From an uncultured Pseudomonadales bacterium (GTDB lineage: Bacteria > Patescibacteriota > Microgenomatia > UBA1400 > PJMF01), in NCBI GenBank assembly GCA_964611955.1, contig CAZTBN010000003.1, positions 1-40,861 of the forward strand: a DNA stretch of 40,861 bases. The letters are read 5' to 3'. A program made the translations under genes and the position numbers. Below the pieces are notes generated by a model. It saw only the letters and a program-made list of their open reading frames with translations, did no database searches and had not been told where the DNA came from. This document shows, in pieces, positions 15,466 to 32,966 of this stretch; within the stretch, counting starts at the first letter, position 1; each line of letters starts with the position of its first letter.

Positions 15466-15499
15466 AATAATTCCTTAATAATTTTTAAATAATAAAGTT

Positions 15500-15524
15500 A
15501 GGCAATTACTAACAGTAATTGCCT
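15500..15524 (-). promoter_or_regulatory. Perfect 11-bp stem-loop in the rny 5' leader
   Basis: AGGCAATTACT (15500-15510) pairs with AGTAATTGCCT (15514-15524) across a 3-nt loop. It sits about 35 nt upstream of the rny start codon on the minus strand. Function unknown. Confidence 0.4.
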
Positions 15525-15600
15525 CAAGAATTCGCTATCTATAACAAGACAGCTATTCTGATTTACAGAGACGTGAAAAGTTCAACATGGAGAAATAACA

Positions 15601-15705
15601 AATTTAAAAAATCAAAAATTACGACGCACTATGATTTAAGTCACAATCCAGGATTAATAGATGGGTTGAATTTAGAATCATAAATAAATAACTAATGTCG
15701 TAATT
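15601..15705 (-). terminator. Compound hairpin plus U-run; candidate recA 3'-UTR terminator or sRNA 3' end
   Basis: Outer stem AATTACGAC (15617-15625) / GTCGTAATT (15697-15705). Inner stem TATGATT (15630-15636) / AATCATA (15676-15682). On the minus strand the structure is followed by TTTGATTTTTTAAATT. Confidence 0.4.
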
Positions 15706-15932
15706 TCTAATATAAATTTGTATTTCATCCTTGCGCTATAATTTTGCTAACCTAAGACTCGATTTTCATTATCAACTTAGCAACAAGGTCACGCTTAACT
15801 TATCATTGAAGCTGTCACGCTTCTGTAAGTTGCATTATAAGCTTTACAGGCGTTACAGTCAAATAAATTTATAGCCAATAAATATTTAAAAAAGATTTAT
15901 TTATCAATGTTTTTCATTTATGTACCGAAAGC

Positions 15933-17229: not shown

Positions 17230-17302
17230 ACGGGCTGTGGCTCAGTTGGTAGAGCACGCGCATGGGGTGCGCGGGGTCGCTGGTTCGAGTCCAGTCAGCC
17301 CG
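17230..17302 (+). tRNA. tRNA-Pro (anticodon GGG)
   Basis: Manual cloverleaf. Acceptor CGGGCTG/CAGCCCG (C1:G72, A73, as expected for Pro). D-arm GCTC-AGTTGGTA-GAGC. Anticodon stem CGCGC/GCGCG with loop AT-GGG-GT (G37). T-arm GCTGG-TTCGAGT-CCAGT. CCA is not encoded. Confidence 0.9.
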
Positions 17303-17556: not shown

Positions 17557-18585
17557 TTAGCCAATTGACTTATCACCACTCTCAACAATCTCTTTTTTCG
17601 CGTCTGCCCATTCTACAATCTGCTTGAGTCTAATAAAAGACAGATAACCGATAATGGCTTGCATGAGGGTGACGGCTGGCAAAATAATTAGGTCAATTAA
17701 TATTTGTATGAATTCACTCTGCACTGGTAACAAGGCAGTAGTAATCTCGCTAGTAAGGTTTACAAATATTTGAGAAACTAAACTAATAATTATAGCGACT
17801 GCGAGATAGTGCCACAGTTGCTTAAAATTTTTAAACCACATTTTAGTATAGTGAACGCTGGTAGTTAAAGCTTTTATCCCTTTAAGATCATTAAGGATAA
17901 CGAGATAGGGAACGTGCATAAACAGAACCGCTAGCACTAATCCAGGTAAGATTAAAAAAACTAAGCCGATCATAATAAAAAGAAACTGCATTAGTCCAGC
18001 CACCAGTAAAGGAATAATTTTAGCAAAAGCTTGTTTAAAAGCAGTGCCTACTTTAATATTTTCTTCTCGATAATGTAAAAAAATAATTGAGGCAATCTGA
18101 GAGGCTAGCATGATGATCATAGCAAGAATGAGAAATCCAACCAACATACCCATTCCAGGCATAAACAAAGAGCTAAAATCAATATTAGATGACTCTGAGG
18201 AGAGTAACCCAGCCATATTAAAAATCGTTACCCCAGAGAGGATCACGATTGCTAACAAGGCAATTATGGTAACAACAACTGATGGCCCTAAGATAACGAT
18301 TGCTAGTTTTTTCCAATGTGTGGCTAGAATTGCCCAGACTTCTTTAAAAATTTCAGTGATAGTTTTTTGAGATAACTCATCGCTATCACTATTATTGTTA
18401 GCGGTATTAACTTCAGTAGGAACTGCAGTTTCAGTTGCCGAGTTTTTATTTTTTGCTAGTGCTTCATCAATTTCTACTTCAGGCCATTTGTTTTCCAGTA
18501 AGATAGTTTTAATTTCCTGATCGGTATTGCCAGCTTCTCGGGAATTTTTTATCCACTTTAAAAGTTCTTGATTGATCATAGACAA
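17557..18585 (-). CDS. Hypothetical polytopic membrane protein (342 aa)
   Basis: Soluble N-terminal about 90 aa, then at least 6 hydrophobic helices. No family recognised. Confidence 0.6.
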   Translation of the reverse strand: MSMINQELLKWIKNSREAGNTDQEIKTILLENKWPEVEIDEALAKNKNSATETAVPTEVNTANNNSDSDELSQKTITEIFKEVWAILATHWKKLAIVILGPSVVVTIIALLAIVILSGVTIFNMAGLLSSESSNIDFSSLFMPGMGMLVGFLILAMIIMLASQIASIIFLHYREENIKVGTAFKQAFAKIIPLLVAGLMQFLFIMIGLVFLILPGLVLAVLFMHVPYLVILNDLKGIKALTTSVHYTKMWFKNFKQLWHYLAVAIIISLVSQIFVNLTSEITTALLPVQSEFIQILIDLIILPAVTLMQAIIGYLSFIRLKQIVEWADAKKEIVESGDKSIG

Positions 18586-18630
18586 CTCAATAATTGGTTA
18601 ATAAGGGATGACTAAATTTTCAGGGGGGTT

Positions 18631-19401
18631 TTAATCATCTGTATCTAAAGAAATGATTTTTTGTAGCCAAGCTGAGGCTTTTTCATATAACGTTAACTCT
18701 GGTTTTTTATGCAGGAGTACTTCTGATAAGATCTCGGTTAAAAGGGCTTTATTTTGTTTGCCCAATAACAAAGTTATCCTGCCAGGAAATCTAAAGCTGG
18801 CGATATTAAGCAATGTTTGATTATATTTTTTGTCAAACCAAAAATTACCTAGTTCTTCCCAGTAATAAAGATTTTTTTCGATATGGATACCATAAGTAGT
18901 TATCTTGTACTCAACATCAATCGGAGGAATCACTGACAGCACATAAACTAGGAAAACTATAGAAATTACCACAGTCACTGCAGTCAGTTGACCAGCAAAA
19001 CCCAGGATTAAAGAAATTAACAGAGCAATAATAGTGACTGTACTGAAATATTTTTTGTTATGTTTTCTAAATGGTCGACTCGGAGCCATCCACTCAATCA
19101 CCGTTTCCTCTGGCAAAGGACGATACATACCTGGAGCAATACGAGATTCCTCGATTTTGCTGTGAGGATATTGACTGGCATTAGTTTGAGCTGATTCTGT
19201 AGTTGGCTGATAGTTTTCTGGCTGCTGAGCTTGAAATTCTTGTTGATAAAGGTTTGAAGATTGATCTTGATCCTGTTGCGCAGGCTGTTCAAAAACTTGA
19301 TGCTGAGTACTTGCTTGATCATTGGCTGCAGCCTGATCTCTAGACTTAAATTCTGGAGTAGGGCTTGATTGCTGATCACTTGGTAGTTGAGCATTTGGCA
19401 T
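18631..19401 (-). CDS. Hypothetical membrane protein with a Gln-rich N-terminus (256 aa)
   Basis: Q/P/S-rich disordered N-terminus, two adjacent TM helices (VTIIALLISLILGFAGQL, VVISIVFLVYVLSVIPP) and a globular C-terminal about 90 aa. No family recognised. Confidence 0.6.
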   Translation of the reverse strand: MPNAQLPSDQQSSPTPEFKSRDQAAANDQASTQHQVFEQPAQQDQDQSSNLYQQEFQAQQPENYQPTTESAQTNASQYPHSKIEESRIAPGMYRPLPEETVIEWMAPSRPFRKHNKKYFSTVTIIALLISLILGFAGQLTAVTVVISIVFLVYVLSVIPPIDVEYKITTYGIHIEKNLYYWEELGNFWFDKKYNQTLLNIASFRFPGRITLLLGKQNKALLTEILSEVLLHKKPELTLYEKASAWLQKIISLDTDD

Positions 19402-23174: not shown

Positions 23175-25337
23175 GTGCCAAATACCTCAACAACACTCAA
23201 CCCACAACCGTCTGATCAAGCAGTGTCAGAAGCCAATAACCATCAAGCAGGCCAAGATAAGCTTGCTGCTGCGCCAAATGATCGTGCCGCTAAATCTTCT
23301 GGAAAAAAACCGTTAATCTTGGTGTTAATTATCATTTTCATTTTCACTTTTGTTGGTGGAGTGTTAGCTCACTCTTTGGGTATGTTTTCTTTTTTAAATT
23401 TAACTAATCGTGATATAGAGGAACCAGCAGTTACTTCAACAGATCAGAATTCAATCTTAGAGAATCTTGTTGAGCCAGGCGAGAATAACTCAGAATCTCT
23501 TTTTGTCGGTAAGCTGACTAAACTTGATCAAGATTTACAATTATATAAGCCTTCAGAGACTGATCAAAATACAGATATTCAGCTTACTAGTATTTATTAT
23601 TCGGCAGGTATTTATAATTCTGGCAGTTTACAAGGCTATACCAGAATTGTGGCCTTTCGAGAACCAGAGGGTCCAGGTGATGTTGAGGTTTATATTTTAG
23701 CAACTAAAGATTTTCAAACATACATCTTGCATGATCCGCAAAATTTAACAAAAAATTCTGCAGAAGATGATTGGGACAACCCTTTTCATTATTTAGATAA
23801 AAATAAGATTGCTAATACTCAAACTTTACCTACTTATTATGAAGAAACTATTAAGCTTGATAATACTTTTGTTTTGCTCTTTAAGAGTTACGCAGTTGAA
23901 TACTTAGTTAATGGGAAAGATTCAGCAGGGCAAGACATTTATCAGTTGGATTTACTTACTTCTTTATCTGGTTTTCAACCATTAACCTCTCCTGATAAAA
24001 ATCTTCAACTTTATTATAGAACTTTTGAGCCAATGCTTGAGTTCGAAGAGTTGACCCCTGAAGCAGTTAAAACTCAGCAAAAAATTGCCAATAAATATTA
24101 TGCGGGCGATACTACTGTTTTAGCTCTAGATTCAACTGGTTTACCAGTTTTTTATTCATTATCTACTAATCAAGAAGTTGCTAAATACAAGCAACAGCTG
24201 GTTAAATTTGATCAGCAGTATCAAGTATATCTTCAGGCAGTTCAAGATTATGATAATGGTCTCATGACAGAATATCCTGATTATCCAGAAGCTGCTGAGA
24301 AACCAACCTTGGGTTTTAACAGTTCGCAGATTCAAGCCAACCAAAATTTACCTTGGTTTGATAAATATCATGCTGCTTTTGGCAGTGTGTGCGGTCTTGA
24401 TTTAGCAACTAAACTTATTACAGTTGAAGAATCAGAGCTAGAACCAGTTGGGACAGTTTATGGCTTAACTCTCTACAAACTTAAAGATCAAAATCATGAT
24501 TTAAATAAATTAGCTTATGCGCATAAGTTTAATTATTACATTGAATCATTGGCTGATGGACACGATGACTTTTCTAGTATGAATCCTGGCAAAACCATAC
24601 CATCTTATGAAGCATATATTGCACAAAATCCATTATTAATCTTAAAAGATTATTGGCAAAGATGGGCAGTTGTGGGAGAGTACGACTTTGTGTTGCCCGG
24701 CGGTTGTGGCAAGCCGGTTATTTATTTATATCCAACCAAGCCAACTGAAATTGAAGTCAGGTTGCTCAAACCAGTCCAATTTTCAGCTGTTATGCCTAAC
24801 TATCATCAGCAATGGAAAGTTTTAGCCCAGCCCAATGGTATGCTGACTGATCTTCAGCCAGAGTTAACCTCATGTCAAGCGATTGACAGTAATATTCCTG
24901 GTTTAGAGTATGCGAAGCAAGCTTGTGAGAATAACAGTTATCCCTATTTATATTGGTCAGGTAATGTCCTTGATACTAATTATCCTAAAATTGATCAAGG
25001 TTGGGTGGTGAGTAGGTCAGCAGTGAGTGAGTTTTTAGCTACTAAATTAACTGAAATGGGCTTATCTAAAACTGAAAAAACAGAATTTTTACAGTATTGG
25101 TTGCCTCAGATGTTGGCTAAAAAGGCTAATTATTATCGTATTAGTTTTTTACAAACTCATCAGCTGAATCAATTTATTCCTATGGAGGTTAAGCCTGCAC
25201 CTGATACAGTTTTTAGAATTTTTATGGATTATAAGCCATTAGCAACCTTACCAGAGCAGTTACCAGCGCCACAGTCTTTGCAAACCTTGAATAGACAAGG
25301 ATTTACTCTGGTAGAATGGGGTGGGCTGAAACAGTAA
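23175..25337 (+). CDS. Large membrane-anchored extracytoplasmic hypothetical protein (720 aa)
   Basis: GTG start. N-terminal disordered region plus a single TM (PLILVLIIIFIFTFVGGVLA). The C-terminal region includes GGCGKPVIYLYP. No family recognised. Divergent from the GT2 gene. Confidence 0.65.
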   Translation: MPNTSTTLNPQPSDQAVSEANNHQAGQDKLAAAPNDRAAKSSGKKPLILVLIIIFIFTFVGGVLAHSLGMFSFLNLTNRDIEEPAVTSTDQNSILENLVEPGENNSESLFVGKLTKLDQDLQLYKPSETDQNTDIQLTSIYYSAGIYNSGSLQGYTRIVAFREPEGPGDVEVYILATKDFQTYILHDPQNLTKNSAEDDWDNPFHYLDKNKIANTQTLPTYYEETIKLDNTFVLLFKSYAVEYLVNGKDSAGQDIYQLDLLTSLSGFQPLTSPDKNLQLYYRTFEPMLEFEELTPEAVKTQQKIANKYYAGDTTVLALDSTGLPVFYSLSTNQEVAKYKQQLVKFDQQYQVYLQAVQDYDNGLMTEYPDYPEAAEKPTLGFNSSQIQANQNLPWFDKYHAAFGSVCGLDLATKLITVEESELEPVGTVYGLTLYKLKDQNHDLNKLAYAHKFNYYIESLADGHDDFSSMNPGKTIPSYEAYIAQNPLLILKDYWQRWAVVGEYDFVLPGGCGKPVIYLYPTKPTEIEVRLLKPVQFSAVMPNYHQQWKVLAQPNGMLTDLQPELTSCQAIDSNIPGLEYAKQACENNSYPYLYWSGNVLDTNYPKIDQGWVVSRSAVSEFLATKLTEMGLSKTEKTEFLQYWLPQMLAKKANYYRISFLQTHQLNQFIPMEVKPAPDTVFRIFMDYKPLATLPEQLPAPQSLQTLNRQGFTLVEWGGLKQ

Positions 25338-25542: not shown

Positions 25543-26610
25543 ATGAACTCAAACTTAAAAAAAACAGGCGCTCACAAAAATCTACTGATCATCACTCCCT
25601 ATTTCCATCCTCATTTAGGTGGTGTAGAAAAACATGTTTTAAAAATTAGCCTGTTATTGCAACAACAAGGCTGGCAGATCAAGATCATCACCCGCCAACA
25701 TGATCCAGCGCTGGCTACTCAAGAGCAAGTGCAAGGTTTAACTGTAAATCGCTTCAGTTTTCCTAATTTAAGAGTTTTAGGCTTAGTTGTAATCTGGTTA
25801 AAACTGTTAGCTCGCTATTTTCGGGTTTTTAAGCAGGCAGACATCATTCAGGTTCACGATGTTATGGTTTGGTGCCTTTTGATGCGTTTACTATTTCCCA
25901 GAAAAAAGTTTGTGCTTACGGTTCACGGCTGGGAAGGAGTTTACCCCATACCTTTAAAAAATATTTGGCTAAAACAGCTCAGCGCCAGATTGGCTAATAA
26001 AGTGATCTGCGTGGGTGCTTTTATTAAAAAATATTATGGCATTAGTTGTGATCAAGTCATTCTGGGCGCTGTTGCAGATAATATAGTTATTGGTCAGGAA
26101 AAAAAGAAAGCAACAAGTCCTATAAGAATTGTGTATGTGGGTAGATTGGCTAAAGATACTGGGCTATTAATGTTGTTAAAAGCTTATCAAAAGTTGCCGA
26201 TAAAAGTTCAACAAACTCTCAACTTAAGTTTTATTGGAGATGGAGAGCTAAGGTCGCAGTGTTCAACTGTGGGTGAAGTTTTAGGTATGGTTGACGAAAC
26301 AAAAATCAGCACCCAATTAGCACCAGCGCATCTCTGTTTTGCCAGTGGTTATTTATCAGCTTTAGAAGGCTTGAGTGCTGGCTGTTTAGTTGTAGTTGGA
26401 TCAGCAAATCAGCTGAAAAAGGACTATTGGTCAATGAGCGAATTAGCTTCTATAATTAAGATTTGTGAGACTGAAAATGAGTTGGTCACTGTTTTAAAAC
26501 AAGCTCAGCAATTAGTGGCAGATTATGATGTAACTGCGAATTCAACCTGGACAAAACAATACAACTGGCAAACTATTGCAGCGGTGTATAGTGAGATTTA
26601 TTCTTCTTGA
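25543..26610 (+). CDS. GT-B fold glycosyltransferase (GT4-like)
   Basis: N-terminus LLIITPYFHPHLGGVEKHV. C-terminal half has VGRLAKDTG, IGDGELR and LSALEGLSAGC. The start was moved to the ATG MNSNLKK; the ORF track gives GTG at 25498. The stop is TGA. Confidence 0.8.
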   Translation: MNSNLKKTGAHKNLLIITPYFHPHLGGVEKHVLKISLLLQQQGWQIKIITRQHDPALATQEQVQGLTVNRFSFPNLRVLGLVVIWLKLLARYFRVFKQADIIQVHDVMVWCLLMRLLFPRKKFVLTVHGWEGVYPIPLKNIWLKQLSARLANKVICVGAFIKKYYGISCDQVILGAVADNIVIGQEKKKATSPIRIVYVGRLAKDTGLLMLLKAYQKLPIKVQQTLNLSFIGDGELRSQCSTVGEVLGMVDETKISTQLAPAHLCFASGYLSALEGLSAGCLVVVGSANQLKKDYWSMSELASIIKICETENELVTVLKQAQQLVADYDVTANSTWTKQYNWQTIAAVYSEIYSS

Positions 26611-26675
26611 TAATTTTACCTTTCCTAGTTAGTGTTTCCCAATTAAAACGATAGTGGCTTAAAGTCCTATAATAT

Positions 26676-26704
26676 TTGACATATTGGACGTGTTTCTATA
26701 TAAT
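26676..26704 (+). promoter_or_regulatory. Perfect-consensus sigma70 promoter (TTGACA-17 nt-TATAAT)
   Basis: TTGACA at 26676-26681, exactly 17 nt of spacer (26682-26698), TATAAT at 26699-26704. It points toward the structured leader and the high-GC ORF. Confidence 0.6.
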
Positions 26705-26800
26705 TCGATATACTTAAATAATAAATGAACTATTTGTATTGAAATTGAAATAGTTTATTTTGATGCTTAAGCGCTAGTTAATAACTTAAATAAATTTTGG

Positions 26801-27161
26801 TCGACGGCTGATTGCTAATTAAGATTAGTAACAAGCTGTTGATCAGCATCAAGTTTGCCTGCGCTCTTAGCGAGTGTTAGGCGAATCGGTTGATTAATAG
26901 CGGATAGTTGTCTTTATTTATAAAGGCAACGGTTCTTTAACAAGACATACAGAAAGAAACGCGACATGCGTTTCTCCTTTCTGCTGTTTGCTATCACCTA
27001 ACGGTGAGTGGCTCTAAGTTGATTATAGATAACTATGGATAGTAGTTATAAAAGTTTAATCAGTTTGGAGCCACTCATTAACCTGATTCTTTGCCAACCT
27101 GGCAAGGATTCAGTGGGTGGTAATCAAATTGGTGGTATTTGCTCGCCCAGAGCGGGCGAGC
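26801..27161 (+). ncRNA. Unclassified highly structured leader or candidate ncRNA upstream of the high-GC lipoprotein gene
   Basis: Six hand-verified hairpins:
- 26801-26842: 17 of 19 positions paired.
- 26907-26930: 10 bp.
- 26950-26983: 13 bp with a 3-nt bulge.
- 27005-27077: 21 contiguous pairs plus an apical 7-bp stem.
- 27083-27113: 13 of 14 positions paired.
- 27141-27161: 8 bp, all but one G:C.
No credible ORF is present. The strand follows the upstream promoter. Confidence 0.45.
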
Positions 27162-27185
27162 CAAGAAAAAAAGGGAGAAGAGGAA

Positions 27186-27866
27186 ATGAACGCGAAAAAA
27201 ATGCTATTGGTTGGTTTGTTGGTTTTGGTCGCCGTGATGGCGGCCAGCTGCGCTCAGATCGAGGGCTACCAAGTGACGGCGCCAGATGGTGCCGTTTACA
27301 AGGTGGTCCAGGTCTCGGGGGCTGTAACCCCGACGATCATGGCGCCTAGCGCGACCGACATGCCGACGGAAACGGCCACGGTTACGCCGACGGCCACGGT
27401 CACCACGACGGCCAATGAGACGGCAACGGTCACGTCCACGACCATGGCCACGCTGGCCGCAACGGTCGCGCCTAGCGCGACCATCACCCTCACGCTGGGG
27501 GTCGAGAGCCGCGAGGAGCGGCTTGAGCGGCTTACTCAGGTCTTCAAGAATGGCCTCGAGCCCATGCTCAAAGAGGCGGGTTTCGCCTGGAGTTCTCTCC
27601 GGGTTGAGGCACGCCAGATCGAGGAGGAGGTCAATGTCGATGAGATATTGGCCTCAGGTGTCCAGGTTGAGGTTACTGGACTGACGGCCCCCTGGCCGTC
27701 GGGCTTTACCACCGACCGTGAGGTAGTGACGGGTCGGGGATATCAACCCGACCTAAGGAACCCGTCCAAAATCTGGACGGACGTGGTGGGCTACACAGGT
27801 CCGGCCACTTTGTGGCTGGACCTTTCGGACTGGGGCCAACTGGCCCCCGTCACGCCGACCCCGTAA
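27186..27866 (+). CDS. High-GC lipoprotein with a Thr/Ala/Pro-rich linker (226 aa), compositionally foreign
   Basis: SD GGGAGAAGAGGAA lies before the ATG at 27186. Lipoprotein signal MNAKKMLLVGLLVLVAVMAAS-C. Linker TETATVTPTATVTTTANETATVTSTT. Strong G/C third-position bias (ACG, GCC, GTC, GAG). The ORF-track frame 27117..27866 is the only frame with this codon periodicity and a signal peptide. Confidence 0.7.
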   Translation: MNAKKMLLVGLLVLVAVMAASCAQIEGYQVTAPDGAVYKVVQVSGAVTPTIMAPSATDMPTETATVTPTATVTTTANETATVTSTTMATLAATVAPSATITLTLGVESREERLERLTQVFKNGLEPMLKEAGFAWSSLRVEARQIEEEVNVDEILASGVQVEVTGLTAPWPSGFTTDREVVTGRGYQPDLRNPSKIWTDVVGYTGPATLWLDLSDWGQLAPVTPTP

Positions 27867-27968
27867 GGGGTCGGAAGGGGGTCGCCTCTCGCGAGGGACC
27901 CCCAGCGCGATCTGTATGTCTTCATCCCCCCTCTCTTTGGGCAAAAAAAAAGCTCTTAGAGAGGGGGA
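27855..27968 (+). other. Three GC-rich stem-loops at and after the lipoprotein stop codon
   Basis: First: CCGACCCC-GTAA-GGGGTCGG (27855-27874), with the TAA stop inside the tetraloop. Second: GGGGGTC(G)CCTC-TCGC-GAGGGACCCCC (27877-27903). Third: TCCCCC(C)TCTCT ... AGAGAGGGGGA (27925-27968), with a 21-nt A-rich loop. No clean U-run follows any of them. Confidence 0.5.
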
Positions 27969-28042
27969 GATCCCTTAGTTTAGAATTTTCTTTTCTAGTT
28001 TAAGGAATCTCTTTGAAATTTTATCTGCTCAATAAAAATATA

Positions 28043-29362
28043 ATGATAAATAAATTAATTAAACAATTTAATACTAGTGATACTAGTTTGATTATCTCTG
28101 GTTATCCTCAAGAAAAAGGAAAGCAGTCTAATCATGGTATTGCCTGGTACACACAACAAAGTATTGAGCCAATTGCTGCTAAATTTGGCAAACAGTTTGT
28201 GGTGCTTACTGAAAATAATGCTAATACTACTGTCTCAAAATTAGAAAAACATGCTCATAATAAGGTTTTAGTGTGGAGATTGTTTGATAAATCTAAAATT
28301 TATTTATATCCTCAAATTTTAAGAGCTTTAAAGAATTTTCCAAAAATTAAACAAGTTTTTGTTCATAGTGAGTTTGGTACTAAAGGCATGTGGCATTTCG
28401 CTTTGCTGATCCCTTTTCTGTTACTGATAAAACTTACTGGTAAAAAAATCACCTTTTTTTCTCATAATGTTTTAGATAATGTGCAGATGTTGTCAGGACA
28501 TTTAAATTTAAGTTCTAACTCAATCTTGACTCATTTTTTAAATTTAGCTTTGAAAGTGTATTATTTTTTACTTGGAGCTTTAGTTAATAAAATTGTAGTT
28601 TTAGATGAAGTTTTGGTTAAAAGACTTAAAACTTATGTTCCAGAACACAAAATAGTGTCTTTACCGATTCCAGTTGAGTCAAAAAAACCTAAGATTACCC
28701 AAGCTCAAGCTAAAAAACAGTTGGGTTATAAAAAAACTGACAAAGTTTTGTTATTTTTTGGCTTTGTTACTTGGTACAAGGGTGCTGACTGGTTAATTAA
28801 AACATTTGATAAGTTAGTTTCAAATAGCAAGGAACCAGTTAAGCTTATTATTGCTGGGGGCCCTTCTTACTCACTTAAAAATAAGCCATATTATCAAGAA
28901 TATTATCAACAGTTGGTTCAACTGGCTGATAAAAACCCCAATATTACTCTGACTGGTTTTGTCAAACAAGAACTGATTGAAACTTATTTTCAAGCTGCTG
29001 ATCTTACAATTTTTCCTTATCGCGGTTTGATGGGTGCTAGTGGCAGCATGAATCATGCCCTTTCTTATCATAAACCATTTGTGGTTAGTCAAGACATGAA
29101 AGAAATTTTGCTAGCTACTGATATTAAAAAAATCTTAGCAATTCATAAACTTCAAATTAATGATCTCACTTTCTCTTTAACTACAGATGGGCTAAAATCA
29201 GTCATATCATTAATTAATCATGGTTATAAACTTAGAGCCTTATCAAAGATTTCTAAAGCTATAGCTCAGTCAAGAAATATTACTCAACAAGTTGATGAAG
29301 AATATTGTAAAATTTATCAAGACCAAACTTTGCTTAATCAATCAGCCTATCAATTGGGCTAA
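28043..29362 (+). CDS. GT-B fold glycosyltransferase (group 1 family)
   Basis: FGFVTWYKGADWL, LIIAGGPS, LTGFV and FPYRGLMGASGSMNHALSYHKPFVVS. The ATG at 28043 is preferred over the TTG at 28013 in the ORF track. Confidence 0.8.
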   Translation: MINKLIKQFNTSDTSLIISGYPQEKGKQSNHGIAWYTQQSIEPIAAKFGKQFVVLTENNANTTVSKLEKHAHNKVLVWRLFDKSKIYLYPQILRALKNFPKIKQVFVHSEFGTKGMWHFALLIPFLLLIKLTGKKITFFSHNVLDNVQMLSGHLNLSSNSILTHFLNLALKVYYFLLGALVNKIVVLDEVLVKRLKTYVPEHKIVSLPIPVESKKPKITQAQAKKQLGYKKTDKVLLFFGFVTWYKGADWLIKTFDKLVSNSKEPVKLIIAGGPSYSLKNKPYYQEYYQQLVQLADKNPNITLTGFVKQELIETYFQAADLTIFPYRGLMGASGSMNHALSYHKPFVVSQDMKEILLATDIKKILAIHKLQINDLTFSLTTDGLKSVISLINHGYKLRALSKISKAIAQSRNITQQVDEEYCKIYQDQTLLNQSAYQLG

Positions 29363-32300
29363 GAGTTTAAGCTGGGCCATTCTCCTTCTCGTTTTAAGTG
29401 TTGTTATCATCACTAATTTTCATGGTAGTTATTGGTTAATTGGCTGGGATAATATTCAACCTGAATTTGACACAACTGGTAATATTTTTAAGGCCTTAAC
29501 AGCTGTTTGGCAAAACAATCAGGGTTTGGGACATGTGGGAGGTCATGGTTATGCCGCTTTATTACCTCATGCCATTTTTATTTTTCTGTTGGATTTGTTT
29601 TTACCAGCTCATTTAATAAGACTAATCTTTTGTTTTTTAATGCTTGTAAGTGGTGTGATTGGAGCGAAAGTATTATTGACCCATTTTTTTGAAAAAGATG
29701 ACAATAAAGCTTGGATAAGTTTAAGCGGTGCTTTATTTTATTTATTTAATTTAGTTACAATACAAAATTTTTATGCGCCTCTTGAAACTTTTATTATATT
29801 TTATGGTTTGTTGCCCTGGGTTATTCTGTCGTTTAGTAAATGGTTTAATCAACCCAATCTTACTAATATTATAAAATTTTTTGCTATTAATGTTTTGTTT
29901 TCCAGTATCGGTTTTATTCCTCCTGTTTTTGTGGTTTACAGCTTGATGATTGGTTTTATGTTGTTTTTTGCCTTGTTCCAGAAAAAAATTAAGCTAAAAT
30001 CAGCATTGTTAATCCCCTTAGTTCTTCTAGTAACTAATGCCTACTGGTTATTACCAGTTGGCTATTTTACTTTAACCCAGCCAGACGTTTATTTAAATTC
30101 TTATAACAATCAGTTATCTACTCAAAATTTTAATTATGAAAGCACTGACTATGGTAATTTATTAGACACAATGTTATTCAGAAGCTTTTTTCTAGATGCT
30201 TTAGATAGCAAATCTAGCGAAGAAAGTGGTGTTTTTTTTATCATGGATAGTTGGCGTAATTTAAGCCGAGCTCCTCGTTACATGATAATTGGAATTATTT
30301 TTTTTATCGTGACTTTGGCTGGTCTTTTTTATAGTTCTGTTAAGAAAACTAGACAATTATCAAATAGTTTTTTATTGCTACCATTTTTTATTTTTTGTTT
30401 TATAGCGTTAGCTCCTAATGTACCAGTTATTGAGCAAATTAATGATTTGTTAAAGAAAATTCCCATAATTAATCAAGCGTTTAGAGCATCTTTTACTAAG
30501 TTTTCAGTGGCTTTTTTGTTAAGTTATGTCATATTTTTTTCTGCAGGCATTGCGTGGTTACTCACTTTTGTTCAAAAGCTATTTAAATTTTCTAAATATC
30601 TATTTTTAGGAATAGTTATTTTTATTCTGCTTATCTATCTCTATCCGATTTATAAAGGAAATTTATTTTATAATCGTTTGCGATTAAATGTTCCCAATAG
30701 TTATCAAGAAATGTTTGCTTATTTTAAAACGCAAAATAAAGATGACAGAATTCTTAATTTGCCTATCGTTTGGAATTGGGGTTGGGTAGTTTATGATTGG
30801 GGATATACTGGCTCTGGTTTTCTCTGGTATGGTTTAGATCAGCCCATTGTTGATCGGTCATTTGATGTGTGGAGTAAATACAATGAACAATTTTATTGGC
30901 AATTTGATCATGCTTTGCTAGAAAACGACTTAGTTTTATTTGAAACAGTTTTAGATCAATATCAAATTACTTGGCTTTTGGTTGATGATAGCTTAATTAT
31001 TGATAATTCTAAAAAGCAACAATATGACAATTTAGAAAAATTAATAGCACAGACTCAAGCATTTCACTTGGAGAAAGAGTTTGATCATTTAAAACTTTAT
31101 CAAGCTAATCAGCAAGGACAATTAATTGAACCAATCAATCAAGTTGAAAAAATTCAACAGTTGCCTGATTACAAGTATTTAGACTTTGCTTATTTAACAT
31201 CAGGAAATTATATTGAAAATAATCTTGAAGATACAATTTATCCCTTTGCAGAGCTGTTTGCCAAGCGAGCTTTAACAAGTTGGCAAGTGCAGGATAATTC
31301 TTTGCTAAAAGTTTTAAATTTAAGCACTGATACTTATCAAGTTATCAATACCAATGATATTGCTCAAGAAGTTACATTTCAAGTAAAACTTAATAAGGAT
31401 CGCGAAAGTCTTAAAATTCTTTTGGAACCAGTTTATCCCACTATTATTGGAGATCAAACATATCATCGTCAGTATCAAGAATTAGAAATTGTTATTCCTC
31501 AATTTATTAACCCATTAGCTAAAGTGGTGATTGGCAATCAAGTTTTTGATCTTCTAGATGGTCAATCTAATTTAGGTGAAGTGACTCTTGCTGCCAGAGA
31601 TCAAATAGTTGTGAATTTTTTCAGTTTTAAAGAAGATAAAAAAATATCTCCCACAGCACAGGAATTGTCAGATTCTGCACGAGTTATTTGGTATAAAGAG
31701 GGTGCAACTATTAATTATCAAGTTACAGTATTAGATCAAGAGATAATTAGTTTTGAGTCAAGTAATTCATTAATAGTTTTTCCTACAAAACTTGGTGATT
31801 TCGAAGACAGTGTCGTGGTTGATATCAGCGGGTTGGTGGCGGATCAACAGCGTCCTAATTATTGTGTTAGTAAGGAAGGTGACGAGCAGTATCAATGTTA
31901 TCATTCAGCACCTTATGCTGATCATAAAATCGATGACAACTGGAATGCTTTTAAAAAATCAGTTTATTTAAATCAAGAAGGTGCGTATTGGCTAGATTTA
32001 TTGGGCTCAGAACCTTTTGTAGACGATCAAGTTGTTTATCAAAAATATAAGGACGTTAGCTATCAGATTTATCAGCTTGAAGAAACAGTTATTTTAAAAG
32101 AAGATATTTGGGATAAATTACTAGATAAACAAGAAGTAGCTTTCAATAGTCAGCAAGCAAATATATGGACTATAAATCTGCCAGTTTCTGACCAACAAAT
32201 TAATTTTTTAGGATCTGAAGTCTTGGCTAATTGTGATTTTTTAGCAAGAGGAGAAATTTATTCTTCAATTATAAATAATAATTTATTATTATCAGCCAAA

Positions 32301-32966
32301 CACAATGGTAATAGCTGTATTACTATTCCTATAACTGAAAAATTAACCCATAAGCAAGTTGTCATTAGAGTGAAGGGCAAGAATGTTCAGGGAAAAGATT
32401 TAAAGATATATTTTTCTGATAGCTCTGGCAAAATTGGAGAAACAGAGTATCCTTTGAAAGGTAAAGAATTTGATTCCTTGATACCACTCACGATAGATCC
32501 AACCAAGAAATTAAATATTCATTTTGAATCTAAATCATTTCAAGCAACTGAATCAGAATCAGTAATTGAATCTATCAGTGTGTTAGAAATTTTAGATGAT
32601 TCTTTTGATTCTTTCAAATTACAGCCAGTTCAAGATATCAATAAGCAAAACTCTTTAGATTTTGGAGAATTTAACCATAAAGGTATAGGGGATTTTGCAT
32701 ATACAGTTGATTATCAAAAAAACGAAGCGGGTTTAATCAGTCTTTCTCAAGGCTTTGATCAGGGCTGGCTAGCTATCAACTGGCAAGGTCTTGCTGATGT
32801 TGAAATTTTGCCACACTATAGGCTCAACGGCTGGGCTAATGCCTGGCAAGTTCCGGCTGGTGAACAGCAACTGATTATCATTTTCTGGCCACAGTTATTG
32901 CAATTTGGTGGTTTTGCCTTGCTCATTATTGGCGCAACTGTTTTAATTATCAAACTGCGTCGCTAA
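29295..32966 (+). CDS. Very large polytopic membrane protein, GT-C-like (YfhO/AftD-type architecture)
   Basis: About 12 or more hydrophobic helices in the first 470 aa, a roughly 730-aa soluble region, and a terminal TM LQFGGFALLIIGATVLII. The family call rests on architecture only. The ATG at 29295 overlaps the upstream gene by 68 nt. Confidence 0.6.
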   Translation: MKNIVKFIKTKLCLINQPINWAKSLSWAILLLVLSVVIITNFHGSYWLIGWDNIQPEFDTTGNIFKALTAVWQNNQGLGHVGGHGYAALLPHAIFIFLLDLFLPAHLIRLIFCFLMLVSGVIGAKVLLTHFFEKDDNKAWISLSGALFYLFNLVTIQNFYAPLETFIIFYGLLPWVILSFSKWFNQPNLTNIIKFFAINVLFSSIGFIPPVFVVYSLMIGFMLFFALFQKKIKLKSALLIPLVLLVTNAYWLLPVGYFTLTQPDVYLNSYNNQLSTQNFNYESTDYGNLLDTMLFRSFFLDALDSKSSEESGVFFIMDSWRNLSRAPRYMIIGIIFFIVTLAGLFYSSVKKTRQLSNSFLLLPFFIFCFIALAPNVPVIEQINDLLKKIPIINQAFRASFTKFSVAFLLSYVIFFSAGIAWLLTFVQKLFKFSKYLFLGIVIFILLIYLYPIYKGNLFYNRLRLNVPNSYQEMFAYFKTQNKDDRILNLPIVWNWGWVVYDWGYTGSGFLWYGLDQPIVDRSFDVWSKYNEQFYWQFDHALLENDLVLFETVLDQYQITWLLVDDSLIIDNSKKQQYDNLEKLIAQTQAFHLEKEFDHLKLYQANQQGQLIEPINQVEKIQQLPDYKYLDFAYLTSGNYIENNLEDTIYPFAELFAKRALTSWQVQDNSLLKVLNLSTDTYQVINTNDIAQEVTFQVKLNKDRESLKILLEPVYPTIIGDQTYHRQYQELEIVIPQFINPLAKVVIGNQVFDLLDGQSNLGEVTLAARDQIVVNFFSFKEDKKISPTAQELSDSARVIWYKEGATINYQVTVLDQEIISFESSNSLIVFPTKLGDFEDSVVVDISGLVADQQRPNYCVSKEGDEQYQCYHSAPYADHKIDDNWNAFKKSVYLNQEGAYWLDLLGSEPFVDDQVVYQKYKDVSYQIYQLEETVILKEDIWDKLLDKQEVAFNSQQANIWTINLPVSDQQINFLGSEVLANCDFLARGEIYSSIINNNLLLSAKHNGNSCITIPITEKLTHKQVVIRVKGKNVQGKDLKIYFSDSSGKIGETEYPLKGKEFDSLIPLTIDPTKKLNIHFESKSFQATESESVIESISVLEILDDSFDSFKLQPVQDINKQNSLDFGEFNHKGIGDFAYTVDYQKNEAGLISLSQGFDQGWLAINWQGLADVEILPHYRLNGWANAWQVPAGEQQLIIIFWPQLLQFGGFALLIIGATVLIIKLRR

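Follow-up and report, generated by a model that had tools for sequence, protein, structure and literature searches.

Organization of the locus

The window (the whole 40.9-kb stretch of DNA analyzed here) is chromosomal in context, with genes for RecA, RF, FtsEX and RNase Y, and contains a single GC-rich island that carries a lipoprotein gene. The features at and around this gene, all on the forward strand, are:

26676–26704, + strand: sigma-70-type promoter consensus (TTGACA-17-TATAAT, 12/12), with the ATG about 480 nt downstream
26705–27185, + strand: leader/intergenic region, AT-rich (36% GC), a hyper-structured chain of long hairpins
26907–26930 and 26955–26975, + strand: two terminator-like hairpins that flank the conserved leader motif
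26931–26954, + strand: conserved leader element of about 24 nt, consensus RGCACWTTRAMAWAGRYATACAGG
27171–27181, + strand: SD-like purine tract GGGAGAAGAGG, read from the sequence
27186–27866, + strand: 226-aa lipoprotein gene (62% GC, GC3 0.76), with excess secondary structure via synonymous codons
27186–27251, + strand: signal peptide with lipobox (AVMAAS-C; Cys22 at 27249–27251)
27252–27500, + strand: Thr/Ala/Val/Pro-rich stalk with 23 Thr in 83 residues and a mucin-like look
27501–27848, + strand: conserved C-terminal domain (HMM match; motifs EARQIEEE, APWP, QPDLRNPSKIWTD, GPATLW and WGQL)
27855–27971, + strand: three GC-rich hairpins (27855–27874, which spans the stop codon, 27877–27903 and 27927–27967), then a T-rich tract
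28043–29362, + strand: GT1-family glycosyltransferase, the invariant downstream partner, of low GC (GC3 0.22)
29292–32966, + strand: large GT-C-like membrane protein with a weak AftD-type match, the second conserved partner

The open reading frame at 27186–27866 is a true coding sequence, because its homologues are 44–63% identical in amino acids while the DNA is not alignable, the differences between strains are in-frame indels and one synonymous change, and the AF2 model of the C-terminal domain has a pLDDT of 93.7. The sequence-only reading, an earlier examination of the same DNA, had called a genuine lipoprotein gene with an SD and a lipobox signal peptide, and both calls stand. The N-terminus (MNAKKM-LLVGLLVLVAVM-AAS-C22) consists of a basic n-region, a hydrophobic h-region and the lipobox, which was called by eye against a PROSITE-type rule, [LVI..][AST..][GAS]C; the homologues have lipoboxes of the type AAAC, TGC, GGC or VGC. 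The stalk, which includes degenerate 18-nt tandem repeats at 27372–27414, is a candidate O-glycosylation region. There is no LPXTG-type sorting signal at the C-terminus, which ends ...APVTPTP, and in three related loci (L004–L006) LPxTG-like signals sit on the neighboring DUF11/CLIPPER proteins, beside a sortase. The protein is predicted to be membrane-tethered through its lipobox, outside the cytoplasm, and the genomic context suggests a surface (glyco)protein that could be made or decorated by the GT1 and GT-C-like enzymes.

The C-terminal domain (~125 aa, beta-rich) defines a family of about 128 representative clusters, and this family is undescribed and uncharacterized. In Pfam the lipoprotein has just a sub-threshold match to Mucin, which comes from the Thr-rich stalk, and there is no match in NCBIfam or PHROGs. 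A sequence profile search against PDB gives no significant match (E at least 0.41), and Foldseek searches with the domain find no fold match in PDB or BFVD (best E of 0.46 and 0.29 respectively, TM at most 0.24). The match of the GT-C-like protein to PF11847 (E = 1.7e-5) is under the curated Pfam cut-off. A confidently modeled domain without a known fold, locked to a pair of GT1 and GT-C-like genes near sortase and DUF11 genes, offers an entry point to the CPR cell surface, where episymbiosis is mediated.

Base composition and boundaries of the island

The segment 27100–27970 is 60.7% GC, whereas other 871-nt windows of the 40.9 kb have a mean of 35.9% (sd 2.6, maximum 41.9); it lies ~9.5 sd from the mean and is the sole such peak. 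The reading frame has GC1/2/3 values of 0.60/0.51/0.76 and six neighboring genes have GC3 of 0.22–0.34, so that codon usage as well as composition is atypical for the host genome. These values bear out the island in a low-GC genome and the strong G/C third positions described from the sequence alone; the hand counts of G+C given there (38/60, 40/60, 21/60 and 9/60) are all exact, and the six overlapping reading frames listed are all present. The sharp switch to AT-rich sequence on the right side is likewise recovered, with the 30-nt GC falling abruptly from 0.4–0.6 to 0.2 at about 27975. The left edge lies within the signal-peptide codons, where GC is about 0.37 to about position 27214 and at least 0.57 from 27215, and the codon style changes from AT-type to GC-type within the h-region (27204–27248). 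The GC boundaries thus match the start-proximal codons and the terminator. AT-rich first codons were considered as a sign of translation-initiation logic; the trend exists here, but genes in general show it, and it has no discriminating value.

The leader upstream of the gene is AT-rich yet strongly folded (z = -9.2 for 26705–27190 and z = -12.1 for 26611–27185), and the matching upstream regions of L004, L005, L021 and L023 have z-scores of -4.9 to -8.9. Transcription from the predicted sigma-70-type promoter may yield either a long leader or an independent small RNA of about 200 nt. The leader element RGCACWTTRAMAWAGRYATACAGG has one good match in the window, with a chance expectation of 0.29, and is found upstream of homologous GC-rich genes in at least eight other lineages; in L024 it precedes a second GC-rich gene. 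A role for this element as a sigma-70 promoter was rejected, as the spacing does not fit. At the other end, the 3' hairpin region has folding z-scores of -6.0 and -6.9, with the third hairpin (27927–27967) forming part of a wider stem that reaches 27971. The hairpins and the T-rich tract together likely represent the transcript 3' end and the right edge of the island.

Conservation of the locus and origin of the gene

Orthologues of the GT1 gene lie directly downstream of the family gene in every low-GC locus for which downstream sequence is available (about 17, including L004–L008, L011–L018, L021, L023 and L024), and GT-C-like orthologues follow GT1 in L005, L006 and L011–L015. The relationship extends to distant genomes of the Microgenomates group, with L005 belonging to Levyibacteriota and L006 to Blackburnbacteria. 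Among ten sampled family representatives, nine are in a GT1-type locus and one is in a high-GC genome. The fourfold-site GC (GC4) of the family gene ranges from 0.14 to 0.81 between lineages, and that of the GT1 gene from 0.20 to 0.38; in L006, L017 and L024, GC is raised across all reading frames between a DUF11 gene and GT1. The sequence-only reading had suggested looking for the gene in relatives, and had held that high-GC homologues at the same locus throughout the lineage would argue for an old, selectively maintained composition. This is what is seen: the homologue is at the GT1 locus, usually GC-rich, across the Microgenomates group, and the patchy presence expected of a recent import is not observed.

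That reading had offered an assembly chimera, recent acquisition from a high-GC donor or host, and a locally constrained sequence as possible origins, and the evidence favors the last of these. A chimera is excluded, as the same junctions are present in four independent assemblies (Logan SRR8925740 and SRR8925806, ENA ERZ27247358 and JGI Ga0172380) and about 17 other lineages have analogous islands. The sequence-only reading had also seen neither flanking direct repeats nor a mobility gene, and this is confirmed: the island edges are free of tRNAs, integrases, reverse transcriptases and repeats, the only tRNAs of the window are at 17231 and 19526, and no integrase or reverse transcriptase was found in the 27 long reading frames scanned. 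When the island is searched against the whole window by blastn and tblastn, no second copy, silent cassette or repeat appears. A diversity-generating retroelement target was rejected since the window reading frames have no RT domain and the island is not repeated in the window, and a phage origin is unsupported, with no relative found among viral contigs. Among 5.8 billion proteins there are no close homologues beyond the organism's own strains; only these exceed 61% identity to the window protein, and the best non-strain match is 49–61% identical. The metagenome scan used an alignment of 10 closer sequences in place of an overly diverse 40-sequence alignment.

The family gene and GT1 appear to have diverged together. 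Their nearest neighbors agree (window with L004, L011 with L018, L016 with L021, and L005 with L006), and residual synonymous identity is alike for the two genes; the conserved domain is slower-evolving than GT1. Global congruence of domain and GT1 distances is weak (Mantel r = 0.23, p = 0.07), and the case for co-divergence relies on the nearest-neighbor agreement and the synonymous-site comparisons rather than on this test. At fourfold sites of conserved residues, identity between GC-rich alleles is 0.354 versus 0.331 expected by chance (n = 611), whereas the decaying relic of a single import, at a GC4 of about 0.7, would need at least 0.54. With fourfold identity at chance, the composition is maintained and stationary. 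The GC richness of this gene is not imported, and it is a stationary composition kept locally in many lineages, although not in all. Recent acquisition is not supported, as there are no mobility signatures and no close homologue, the gene is syntenic in distant relatives, and its divergence tracks that of GT1. The island is best explained as the transcription unit of a gene that has long resided in the Microgenomates group (CPR) and is inherited vertically.

Two further forms of import have to be weighed against this. One is that the gene was replaced repeatedly, lineage by lineage, by alleles from GC-rich donors such as hosts, followed by amelioration to give GC4 values from 0.81 down to 0.14. 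The GC4 gradient does resemble successive stages of amelioration, the synonymous sites of the GC-rich alleles have evolved under a GC-favoring regime, and one family member, fused to an S8 peptidase and beside an rve integrase and a methylase, resides in a genome of 65% GC and shares 60% identity with the L016/L021 subtype, so that at least one transfer between CPR and high-GC bacteria must have taken place. We nonetheless consider repeated replacement improbable, as insertion at the same intergenic spot in about 17 lineages requires flanking homology that only other CPR genomes have, mobility genes, scars and donor-like close homologues were not found, only one of the sampled representatives is in a high-GC genome, the nearest neighbors and residual synonymous identity match those of GT1, and the hairpin excess described below is absent from genes of a genuinely high-GC genome. 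The other is that the common ancestor received the gene from a high-GC donor in a single ancient event, with amelioration still incomplete, for which the conserved locus and the family-wide tendency to raised GC could be cited. It is hard to credit, since the fourfold sites of GC-rich alleles are fully turned over, the sister alleles L016 and L021 are 0.27 apart in GC4, and the GT1 synonymous sites are saturated over the same divergences.

Islands of this kind are usually taken as evidence of horizontal transfer, or thrown out as contamination when CPR genomes are binned, and composition-based filters would mis-call an island of 25 GC points that is native, ancient and maintained. It offers a testable single-locus case of base composition decoupled from genome-wide mutation bias, and bears on the long debate over selection, gBGC and mutation in bacterial GC content.

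Hairpin excess in the coding region and UTRs

There is an excess of hairpins at synonymous sites and in both UTRs. For the whole reading frame the dinucleotide-shuffle z-score is -10.4, and three permutation designs that involve synonymous (z = -7.3 and -6.0) or local (z = -5.8) permutation agree, with controls at about -0.6. The excess is present in the stalk (27252–27500, z = -3.4) and in the domain segment (27501–27848, z = -8.0). The domain segments of 15 CPR loci have a mean z of -2.9 (window -8.0, L005 -5.0, L013 -4.5 and L006 -4.4), compared to -0.64 ± 1.16 for 38 control segments (Mann-Whitney p = 1.3e-4), and six segments of a genuinely high-GC genome (L019) range from -1.6 to +0.6. 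Further island reading frames in L005 and L006 are structured too. Several GC-rich alleles lack the excess, including L024 (0.1, 0.4 and -0.1), L009 (-0.5), L016 (-0.7) and L021 (-1.8), and GC4 correlates only weakly with z (rho = -0.41, p = 0.13); structure alone therefore cannot account for all of the GC enrichment.

The hairpin positions are lineage-specific. MFE folds of 16 homologues contain 1764 column pairs, of which just five are common to four or more sequences, which offers no covariation support. The signal derives mostly from Watson-Crick inverted repeats, and the sense strand has a more negative z than the antisense in five of seven genes, a modest contrast. The hairpins overlie conserved residues (e.g. 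T-A-P-W-P-S) with no insertion relative to homologues. GC-rich, strongly folding islands in AT-rich genomes are usually structured RNAs, and the folding scores here are extreme, but the reading of this island as a structured non-coding RNA mistaken for a gene has, together with the chimera, next to no chance. The only Rfam matches in the window at gathering are the two tRNAs, and a permissive scan of 26500–28200 (E of 10 or less) gives no family match, its best hit being at E = 0.47 and all hits far below gathering. The base pairs are not kept between lineages, and it is the protein that is conserved in the absence of alignable DNA, with in-frame indels, a confident model and a family of 128 clusters.

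Variation among strains is informative. Between two strains with about 2% divergence in the flanks, positions 26775–28000 are identical; this 1.2-kb block of full identity sits, in L001, between flanks that differ by 1.6–3.2%. In L003 and L007 there are about 17 mismatches confined to 27204–27248, with near identity on either side; apart from this h-region no stretch diverges strongly between strains, and the mature protein hardly varies. The lack of diversity in the island was considered as proof of synonymous constraint and rejected, because the identity block covers part of the leader too and could equally reflect a recombination sweep.

Proposed selection on the RNA and competing explanations

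Selection at the RNA level on a long-resident surface-protein gene best explains the GC richness in our view, and we would put its chances at somewhat under even. The RNA would be saturated with hairpins from leader to terminator, those in the coding region being made by synonymous codon choice, where G/C-ending codons would give stable stems, and in the unconstrained leader long A/U stems would do the equivalent job. The pay-off is probably an mRNA for an abundant envelope protein that is unusually stable, RNase-resistant and/or slowly translated. That the predicted hyper-structure covers the transcript, including the AT-rich leader and the 3' hairpins, that the coding-region excess is at synonymous sites, and that the sense strand is modestly the more strongly folded in five of seven genes are in keeping with this reading, in which selection would act on RNA rather than DNA, with mRNA stability as its putative purpose. 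There is also precedent in S-layer mRNAs, which are stabilized by long structured 5' UTRs, as in Lactobacillus slpA (PMC3666127). Against it are the GC-rich alleles with no hairpin excess and the non-conserved hairpin positions; the Watson-Crick inverted repeats and modest strand contrast are compatible with a DNA-level cause, and the 26775–28000 identity suits a recombinational sweep of an allele more than constraint alone.

In eukaryotes there are highly recombining, GC3-rich genes, and a bacterial counterpart would be a recombination hotspot in which frequent strain exchange, with GC-biased gene conversion or recombination-enhanced selection for GC, leads to local AT-to-GC fixation. This accommodates the mosaic strain pattern (the L001 identity block and the L003/L007 burst of mismatches), the regional nature of the enrichment, which in L006, L017 and L024 takes in the neighboring reading frames and here the 3' UTR, the wide variation in GC4 between sister lineages, and the reshuffling of N-terminal architectures across the family. 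In most bacteria GC is reported to rise with recombination, but the effects are a few GC3 points, not 40–50, and are ascribed to selection and not to gBGC (PMC11879095). As gBGC does not predict a hairpin excess at synonymous sites, and an adjoining leader that is AT-rich yet hyper-structured is not expected either, we regard the hotspot as unlikely. A vls-like or pilE-like expression site for antigenic variation, in which the role of the high GC and the non-conserved inverted repeats would be to promote segmental conversion of the gene by silent cassettes elsewhere in the genome, mirrors what is known of Borrelia vlsE (a lipoprotein, an AT-rich genome, raised GC and non-conserved inverted repeats), and the variable block at 27204–27248 illustrates that localized sequence replacement occurs. 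However, no second copy or cassette is present in the 40.9 kb at the DNA or protein level, the mature protein is nearly invariant between strains rather than variable, the conserved domain evolves more slowly than GT1, and the GC skew is far from that of vls (see below); such a site is very unlikely.

A bolder extension of RNA-level selection, which we find possible but on balance doubtful, is that a few envelope-protein genes of the Microgenomates, those that carry the 24-nt leader element, are kept as 'armored' messages; selection at synonymous sites and in the UTRs would have packed these transcripts with hairpins, raising GC3 by 40–50 points in AT-rich genomes throughout the history of the group. 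If so, the base composition of a coding gene would be set by RNA-level selection and not by mutation bias or transfer, the armoring could be an adaptation of ribosome-poor, slow-growing episymbionts, and the RNA might have a second, non-coding role. The pervasive synonymous-site hairpins, together with the hyper-structured UTRs, suggest that these organisms, of whose gene regulation very little is known, exert a form of control at the level of the mRNA.

Relationship to known systems

Borrelia vlsE is a surface lipoprotein gene in an AT-rich genome. The chromosome is 28.6% GC and the vls cassettes 49%, a difference that the authors of that study infer to be kept up by strong selective pressure; inverted repeats are a constant feature, although their length, place and sequence are not conserved, and the GC skew is about 0.52 (PMC11499132). 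The locus described here is similar in having a surface lipoprotein region about 20 GC points or more above an AT-rich genome, judged to be selectively maintained, and inverted repeats that are present but unconserved. It differs in that there are no silent cassettes within the 40.9 kb, the GC skew of the island is 0.06, and the protein is near-invariant between strains; the proteins are unrelated, and the gene here is chromosomal and tied to glycosyltransferase genes.

Stabilized mRNAs include those with the 5' hairpins of E. coli ompA and the 3' retroregulator of B. thuringiensis cry. Stabilized envelope mRNAs share with the transcript predicted here a long, strongly folded leader and stacked 3' hairpins around a secreted surface-protein gene, along with biased codon usage, but here the predicted structure runs through the whole coding region via synonymous codons, with a GC3 shift of about 45 points. 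To our knowledge there is no other case of a coding-wide synonymous hairpin excess with a GC3 shift of this size.

The sharp compositional break and atypical codon usage recall classical horizontally acquired genomic islands, although here there is no integrase, tRNA, direct repeat or donor-like homologue, the same locus is occupied in distant relatives, and the composition is stationary and not decaying. Rickettsia palindromic elements and yeast mitochondrial GC clusters are in-frame palindromic selfish elements, and they too place GC-rich palindromes in coding sequences of AT-rich genomes; the hairpins here differ in lying on conserved residues without insertion and in not being repeated elsewhere in the window. 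The actinobacterial proteins LpqH and Apa are O-mannosylated Thr/Ala/Pro-rich lipoproteins, modified by the GT-C enzyme Pmt. The protein described here has no sequence relationship to these, its GT-C neighbor has a sub-threshold match to AftD, and its glycosylation is only a candidate modification, but it shares with them a lipobox, a Thr-rich stretch just past the lipobox Cys, and a position beside genes for GT-C-like and cytoplasmic glycosyltransferases.

Composition and setting of the island

The GC-rich island at 27100-27970 is confirmed, with 60.7% GC compared to a mean of 35.9% (sd 2.6, maximum 41.9) for all other 871-nt windows of the 40.9-kb sequence, and it is the only peak of this size. 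The hand counts of G+C in the sequence-only reading (38/60, 40/60, 21/60 and 9/60) are all exact on recount, every overlapping ORF that it listed is present, and the sharp right edge it described lies at ~27975, directly past three GC-rich hairpins. The left edge is at ~27215, within the signal-peptide codons of ORF 27186-27866; this ORF has GC1/2/3 values of 0.60/0.51/0.76, and GC3 in six neighbouring genes is 0.22-0.34.

The window is ordinary chromosome, and encodes RecA, a release factor, FtsE/X, RNase Y, a Mur ligase, FemAB, Dus, an AddA-like helicase and a glycosyltransferase cluster. A protein-family scan of the window ORFs found no integrase, transposase or reverse transcriptase, and the window's only tRNAs lie ~8 kb or more from the island. 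We note that a 720-aa ORF in the glycosyltransferase cluster (23175-25337) has no Pfam or NCBIfam match, and that two ORFs of 342 and 256 aa (17557-19401) are without a Pfam match. Intergenic segments 15466-15932 and 39405-39656 fold far better than their shuffled versions (z = -5.1 and -5.6; negative z denotes more structure) and have no tRNA or Rfam match.

Strain comparisons

The lipoprotein ORF is a real gene. Its exact protein sequence recurs on two Logan contigs of the organism's own strains that were assembled independently, L001 (15.9 kb, 98.2% identical) and L002 (99.98% identical), and a 95%-identical protein is encoded on ENA contig L003 and JGI contig L007. The window's junctions recur in all four contigs, which rules against the assembly chimera offered earlier as one reading. 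Within the ORF, the strains are separated by a single synonymous change, two 3-nt indels that keep the frame, and one substitution block that preserves the hydrophobic signal peptide and lipobox Cys; apart from one synonymous change and an indel of one codon, the mature-protein part of L003 and L007 is unchanged. For homologues with 44-63% amino-acid identity, blastn gives no DNA alignment.

L001 is identical to the window across 26775-28000, with flanks that are 1.6-3.2% different. Divergence between the two changes abruptly: the 250 nt at 26500-26750, which take in the GT4 gene's 3' end and the first part of the intergenic region, have 26 mismatches and directly adjoin the 1.2-kb mismatch-free block. 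In L003 and L007, 45 nt of the signal-peptide h-region (27204-27248) have ~17 substitutions and a 3-nt indel, with ~600 nt on each side virtually identical. This patch coincides exactly with the switch from AT to GC codon style, and reflects either recombination over a very short tract or hypervariability confined to this spot.

The protein family and its locus

The protein has three parts:

Part 1 of 3: signal peptide and lipobox (MNAKKMLLVGLLVLVAVMAAS before the Cys)
Part 2 of 3: stalk of 83 residues (23 Thr, 15 Ala, 10 Val, 6 Pro) with degenerate 18-nt repeats
Part 3 of 3: conserved domain of ~125 aa (27501-27848, forward strand) with motifs EARQIEEE, APWP, QPDLRNPSKIWTD, GPATLW and WGQL

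The lipoprotein has no match in Pfam, NCBIfam, PHROGs or PDB sequences. An AlphaFold model of the C-terminal domain from a 40-sequence alignment has pLDDT 93.7 and pTM 0.85, and Foldseek finds nothing similar to the fold in PDB (best E 0.46) or BFVD (0.29), with TM <= 0.24. Exhaustive profile searching places 128 representative clusters in the family (109 of them at E <= 1e-10), with N-termini that differ between a lipobox, a TM anchor, a plain signal peptide and collagen-like repeats. Many members also contain a second, Cys-bounded domain (...AGAQ..F...W..P.GW..Q..G...S.WSPE.CRPL), in one to four copies. This uncharacterised ~65-aa 'domain B' accompanies the family both in fusions and as stand-alone GC-rich genes (L024 7498-8622, L006 8335-9303, L017 911-2887, and the C-termini of representatives P0002, P0012, P0029 and P0035). 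The L017 protein (911-2887) has collagen-like GXY repeats, and matches phage tail-fibre PHROGs through those repeats only.

A scan of species-representative genomes gave two matches, one Candidatus Levyibacteriota and one Candidatus Blackburnbacteria genome, both within the Microgenomates group; a metagenome scan added 11 family loci, and look-ups of ten family representatives nine more of the same type. An orthologue of the glycosyltransferase gene GT1 (28043-29362) is the next gene in every low-GC locus with downstream sequence, followed, wherever sequence extends further, by an orthologue of the large membrane-protein gene, GT-C-like (29292-32966). The upstream neighbour is usually a DUF11/CLIPPER protein carrying an LPxTG-like signal, often with a sortase, in place of which the window lineage has a GT4 gene. 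The sole locus exception is P0081 (L019 2624-5275; L020 728-3379), a fusion of the domain to an S8 peptidase that lies between genes for an rve integrase and an N6 DNA methylase; it shares 60% identity with one CPR subtype, and no other member was found in a truly high-GC genome (65% GC in this case). In essence, then, the family is specific to one locus in Microgenomates, with evidence that the gene has passed at least once between CPR and a high-GC bacterium, in either direction. The start of the GT-C-like ORF is a mechanically called TTG that creates a 71-nt overlap (29292-29362) with the end of GT1; the true start is probably further downstream, because orthologue alignments begin only at ~residue 41.

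GC content across lineages

In nearly all loci the homologous segment is 0.41-0.68 GC compared to 0.30-0.44 in the flanks. The anomaly is lineage-wide but variable, as seen at fourfold sites (GC4) of the domain:

GC4 of the conserved domain
L008 0.14; L022 0.20; L018 0.26; L011 0.30; L014 0.40
L023 0.46; L004 0.50; L016 0.51; L013 0.61; window 0.67
L009 0.69; L006 0.72; L005 0.73; L021 0.78; L017 0.81

GC4 of the adjoining GT1 gene is 0.20-0.38 in all loci. Where islands have several ORFs, every one is GC-rich (e.g. three in L006 and two in L024), and L024 has an additional GC-rich domain-B gene past GT-C.

The domain and GT1 have matching nearest neighbours (window-L004, L011-L018, L016-L021 and L005-L006), with similar residual synonymous-site identity in these pairs, which points to co-divergence of the two. 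This co-divergence, and the lack of mobility genes and of any donor trace, leave the earlier suggestion of recent horizontal transfer unsupported. A decaying relic of one GC-rich ancestor is also rejected. Decay to ~0.33 requires that 55% or more of the sites in each lineage have not changed, and thus fourfold identity of at least 0.54; at conserved residues, GC-rich alleles of different subtypes have 0.354, with 0.331 expected from composition (611 site comparisons). The silent sites have therefore fully turned over while staying 65-85% GC, and on this comparison the GC-rich composition of the family gene is judged stationary. Repeated fresh imports of GC-rich alleles could likewise yield turned-over, GC-rich silent sites, but ~17 insertions would be needed at one same spot without mobility genes, and the donors have left no trace.

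A hairpin-rich transcription unit

The ORF, its leader and its 3' end all fold unexpectedly strongly against dinucleotide shuffles, and the ORF also does so against synonymous-codon permutation, in which protein, codon usage and GC3 are held constant.

Folding z scores
ORF, dinucleotide shuffles: -10.4 (-353.5 kcal/mol vs -285.5 ± 6.6)
Leader 26705-27190, AT-rich, dinucleotide shuffles: -9.2
Leader 26611-27185, dinucleotide shuffles: -12.1
3' end, dinucleotide shuffles: -6.0 and -6.9
ORF, synonymous-codon permutation: -7.3 and -6.0
ORF, permutation within 30-codon blocks: -5.8
Domain segment, synonymous-codon permutation: -8.0

Control segments (22 from window genes and 16 from neighbouring genes at other loci) give z = -0.64 ± 1.16, and six from the high-GC genome L019 range from -1.6 to +0.6. 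The domain segment of 15 CPR homologues has a mean z of -2.9, with seven at or below -3.6 (Mann-Whitney p = 1.3e-4 against controls); other island ORFs of L005 and L006 are at -2.4 to -5.3, and upstream regions of other lineages are likewise strongly folded (-4.9 to -8.9). The hairpin excess is absent from some GC-rich alleles (L024, L009 and L016), GC4 correlates weakly with z, and sense-strand z is somewhat below antisense z in five of seven genes.

The stems are short perfect inverted repeats produced by codon choice, for example:

GACGGCC-CCCT-GGCCGTC, over Thr-Ala-Pro-Trp-Pro-Ser
GGTCGGG/CCCGACC and CCGTCCA/TGGACGG
CCGACCCC-GTAA-GGGGTCGG, spanning the stop codon

No conserved stem positions were found in other lineages, and the island region matches no Rfam family.

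Maintenance of the island

The best-supported account, whose mechanism is only partly established, is that the gene is native and old and encodes a tethered surface protein that would act with the GT1 and GT-C-like pair, and whose Thr-rich stalk is a plausible O-glycosylation substrate. Its GC richness is kept up locally, and the force behind this would be, at least in part, selection for a densely folded transcript, which the unconstrained leader would achieve through A/U stems. Such selection is suggested by the match in extent between the island and the transcription unit, by structure that sits at synonymous sites and by the A/U stems of the leader, and there is precedent in S-layer mRNAs stabilised by structured leaders (PMC3666127). 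The 'locally constrained sequence' option of the sequence-only reading is thus supported, and extended.

Transcript selection leaves unexplained the GC-rich alleles lacking a hairpin excess and the block of complete identity between strains, and there is therefore real room for recombination-driven GC bias, a link between recombination and GC having been reported (PMC11879095), and for gene conversion of the vls type. The Borrelia vls system resembles the island in its maintained high GC, lipoprotein product and non-conserved inverted repeats (PMC11499132), although the island has no cassettes within the window, no GC skew and no protein variability between strains. Searches of the literature turned up no account of such a locus.

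Leader elements

The leader has two recognisable elements:

26676-26704, forward strand: perfect sigma-70 consensus, TTGACA-17-TATAAT (sequence match)
26931-26954, forward strand: conserved 24-nt element, consensus RGCACWTTRAMAWAGRYATACAGG

The sigma-70 consensus is followed by ~200 nt of long hairpins, closed by a terminator-like hairpin at 26907-26930 and a T-run; 26676-26935 has no Rfam match, and could be an independent small RNA instead of part of the leader. The 24-nt element, with a single good match in the window, is kept between lineages with protein identities of only 45-60%. It precedes the homologous genes at L004 866, L005 8987, L021 3848, L016 1924, L017 584, L009 505 and L010 2176 and 2997, and the second GC-rich gene at L024 7319. 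Its spacing is not sigma-70-like, which argues against a promoter of that type; candidate roles are those of an alternative promoter, a regulator site or a site of RNA processing. In L010 (2136-3060) the leader is duplicated, including the 24-nt element, and the copies flank ~820 bp with two minus-strand ORFs (106 and 155 aa), which looks like an insertion with target duplication.
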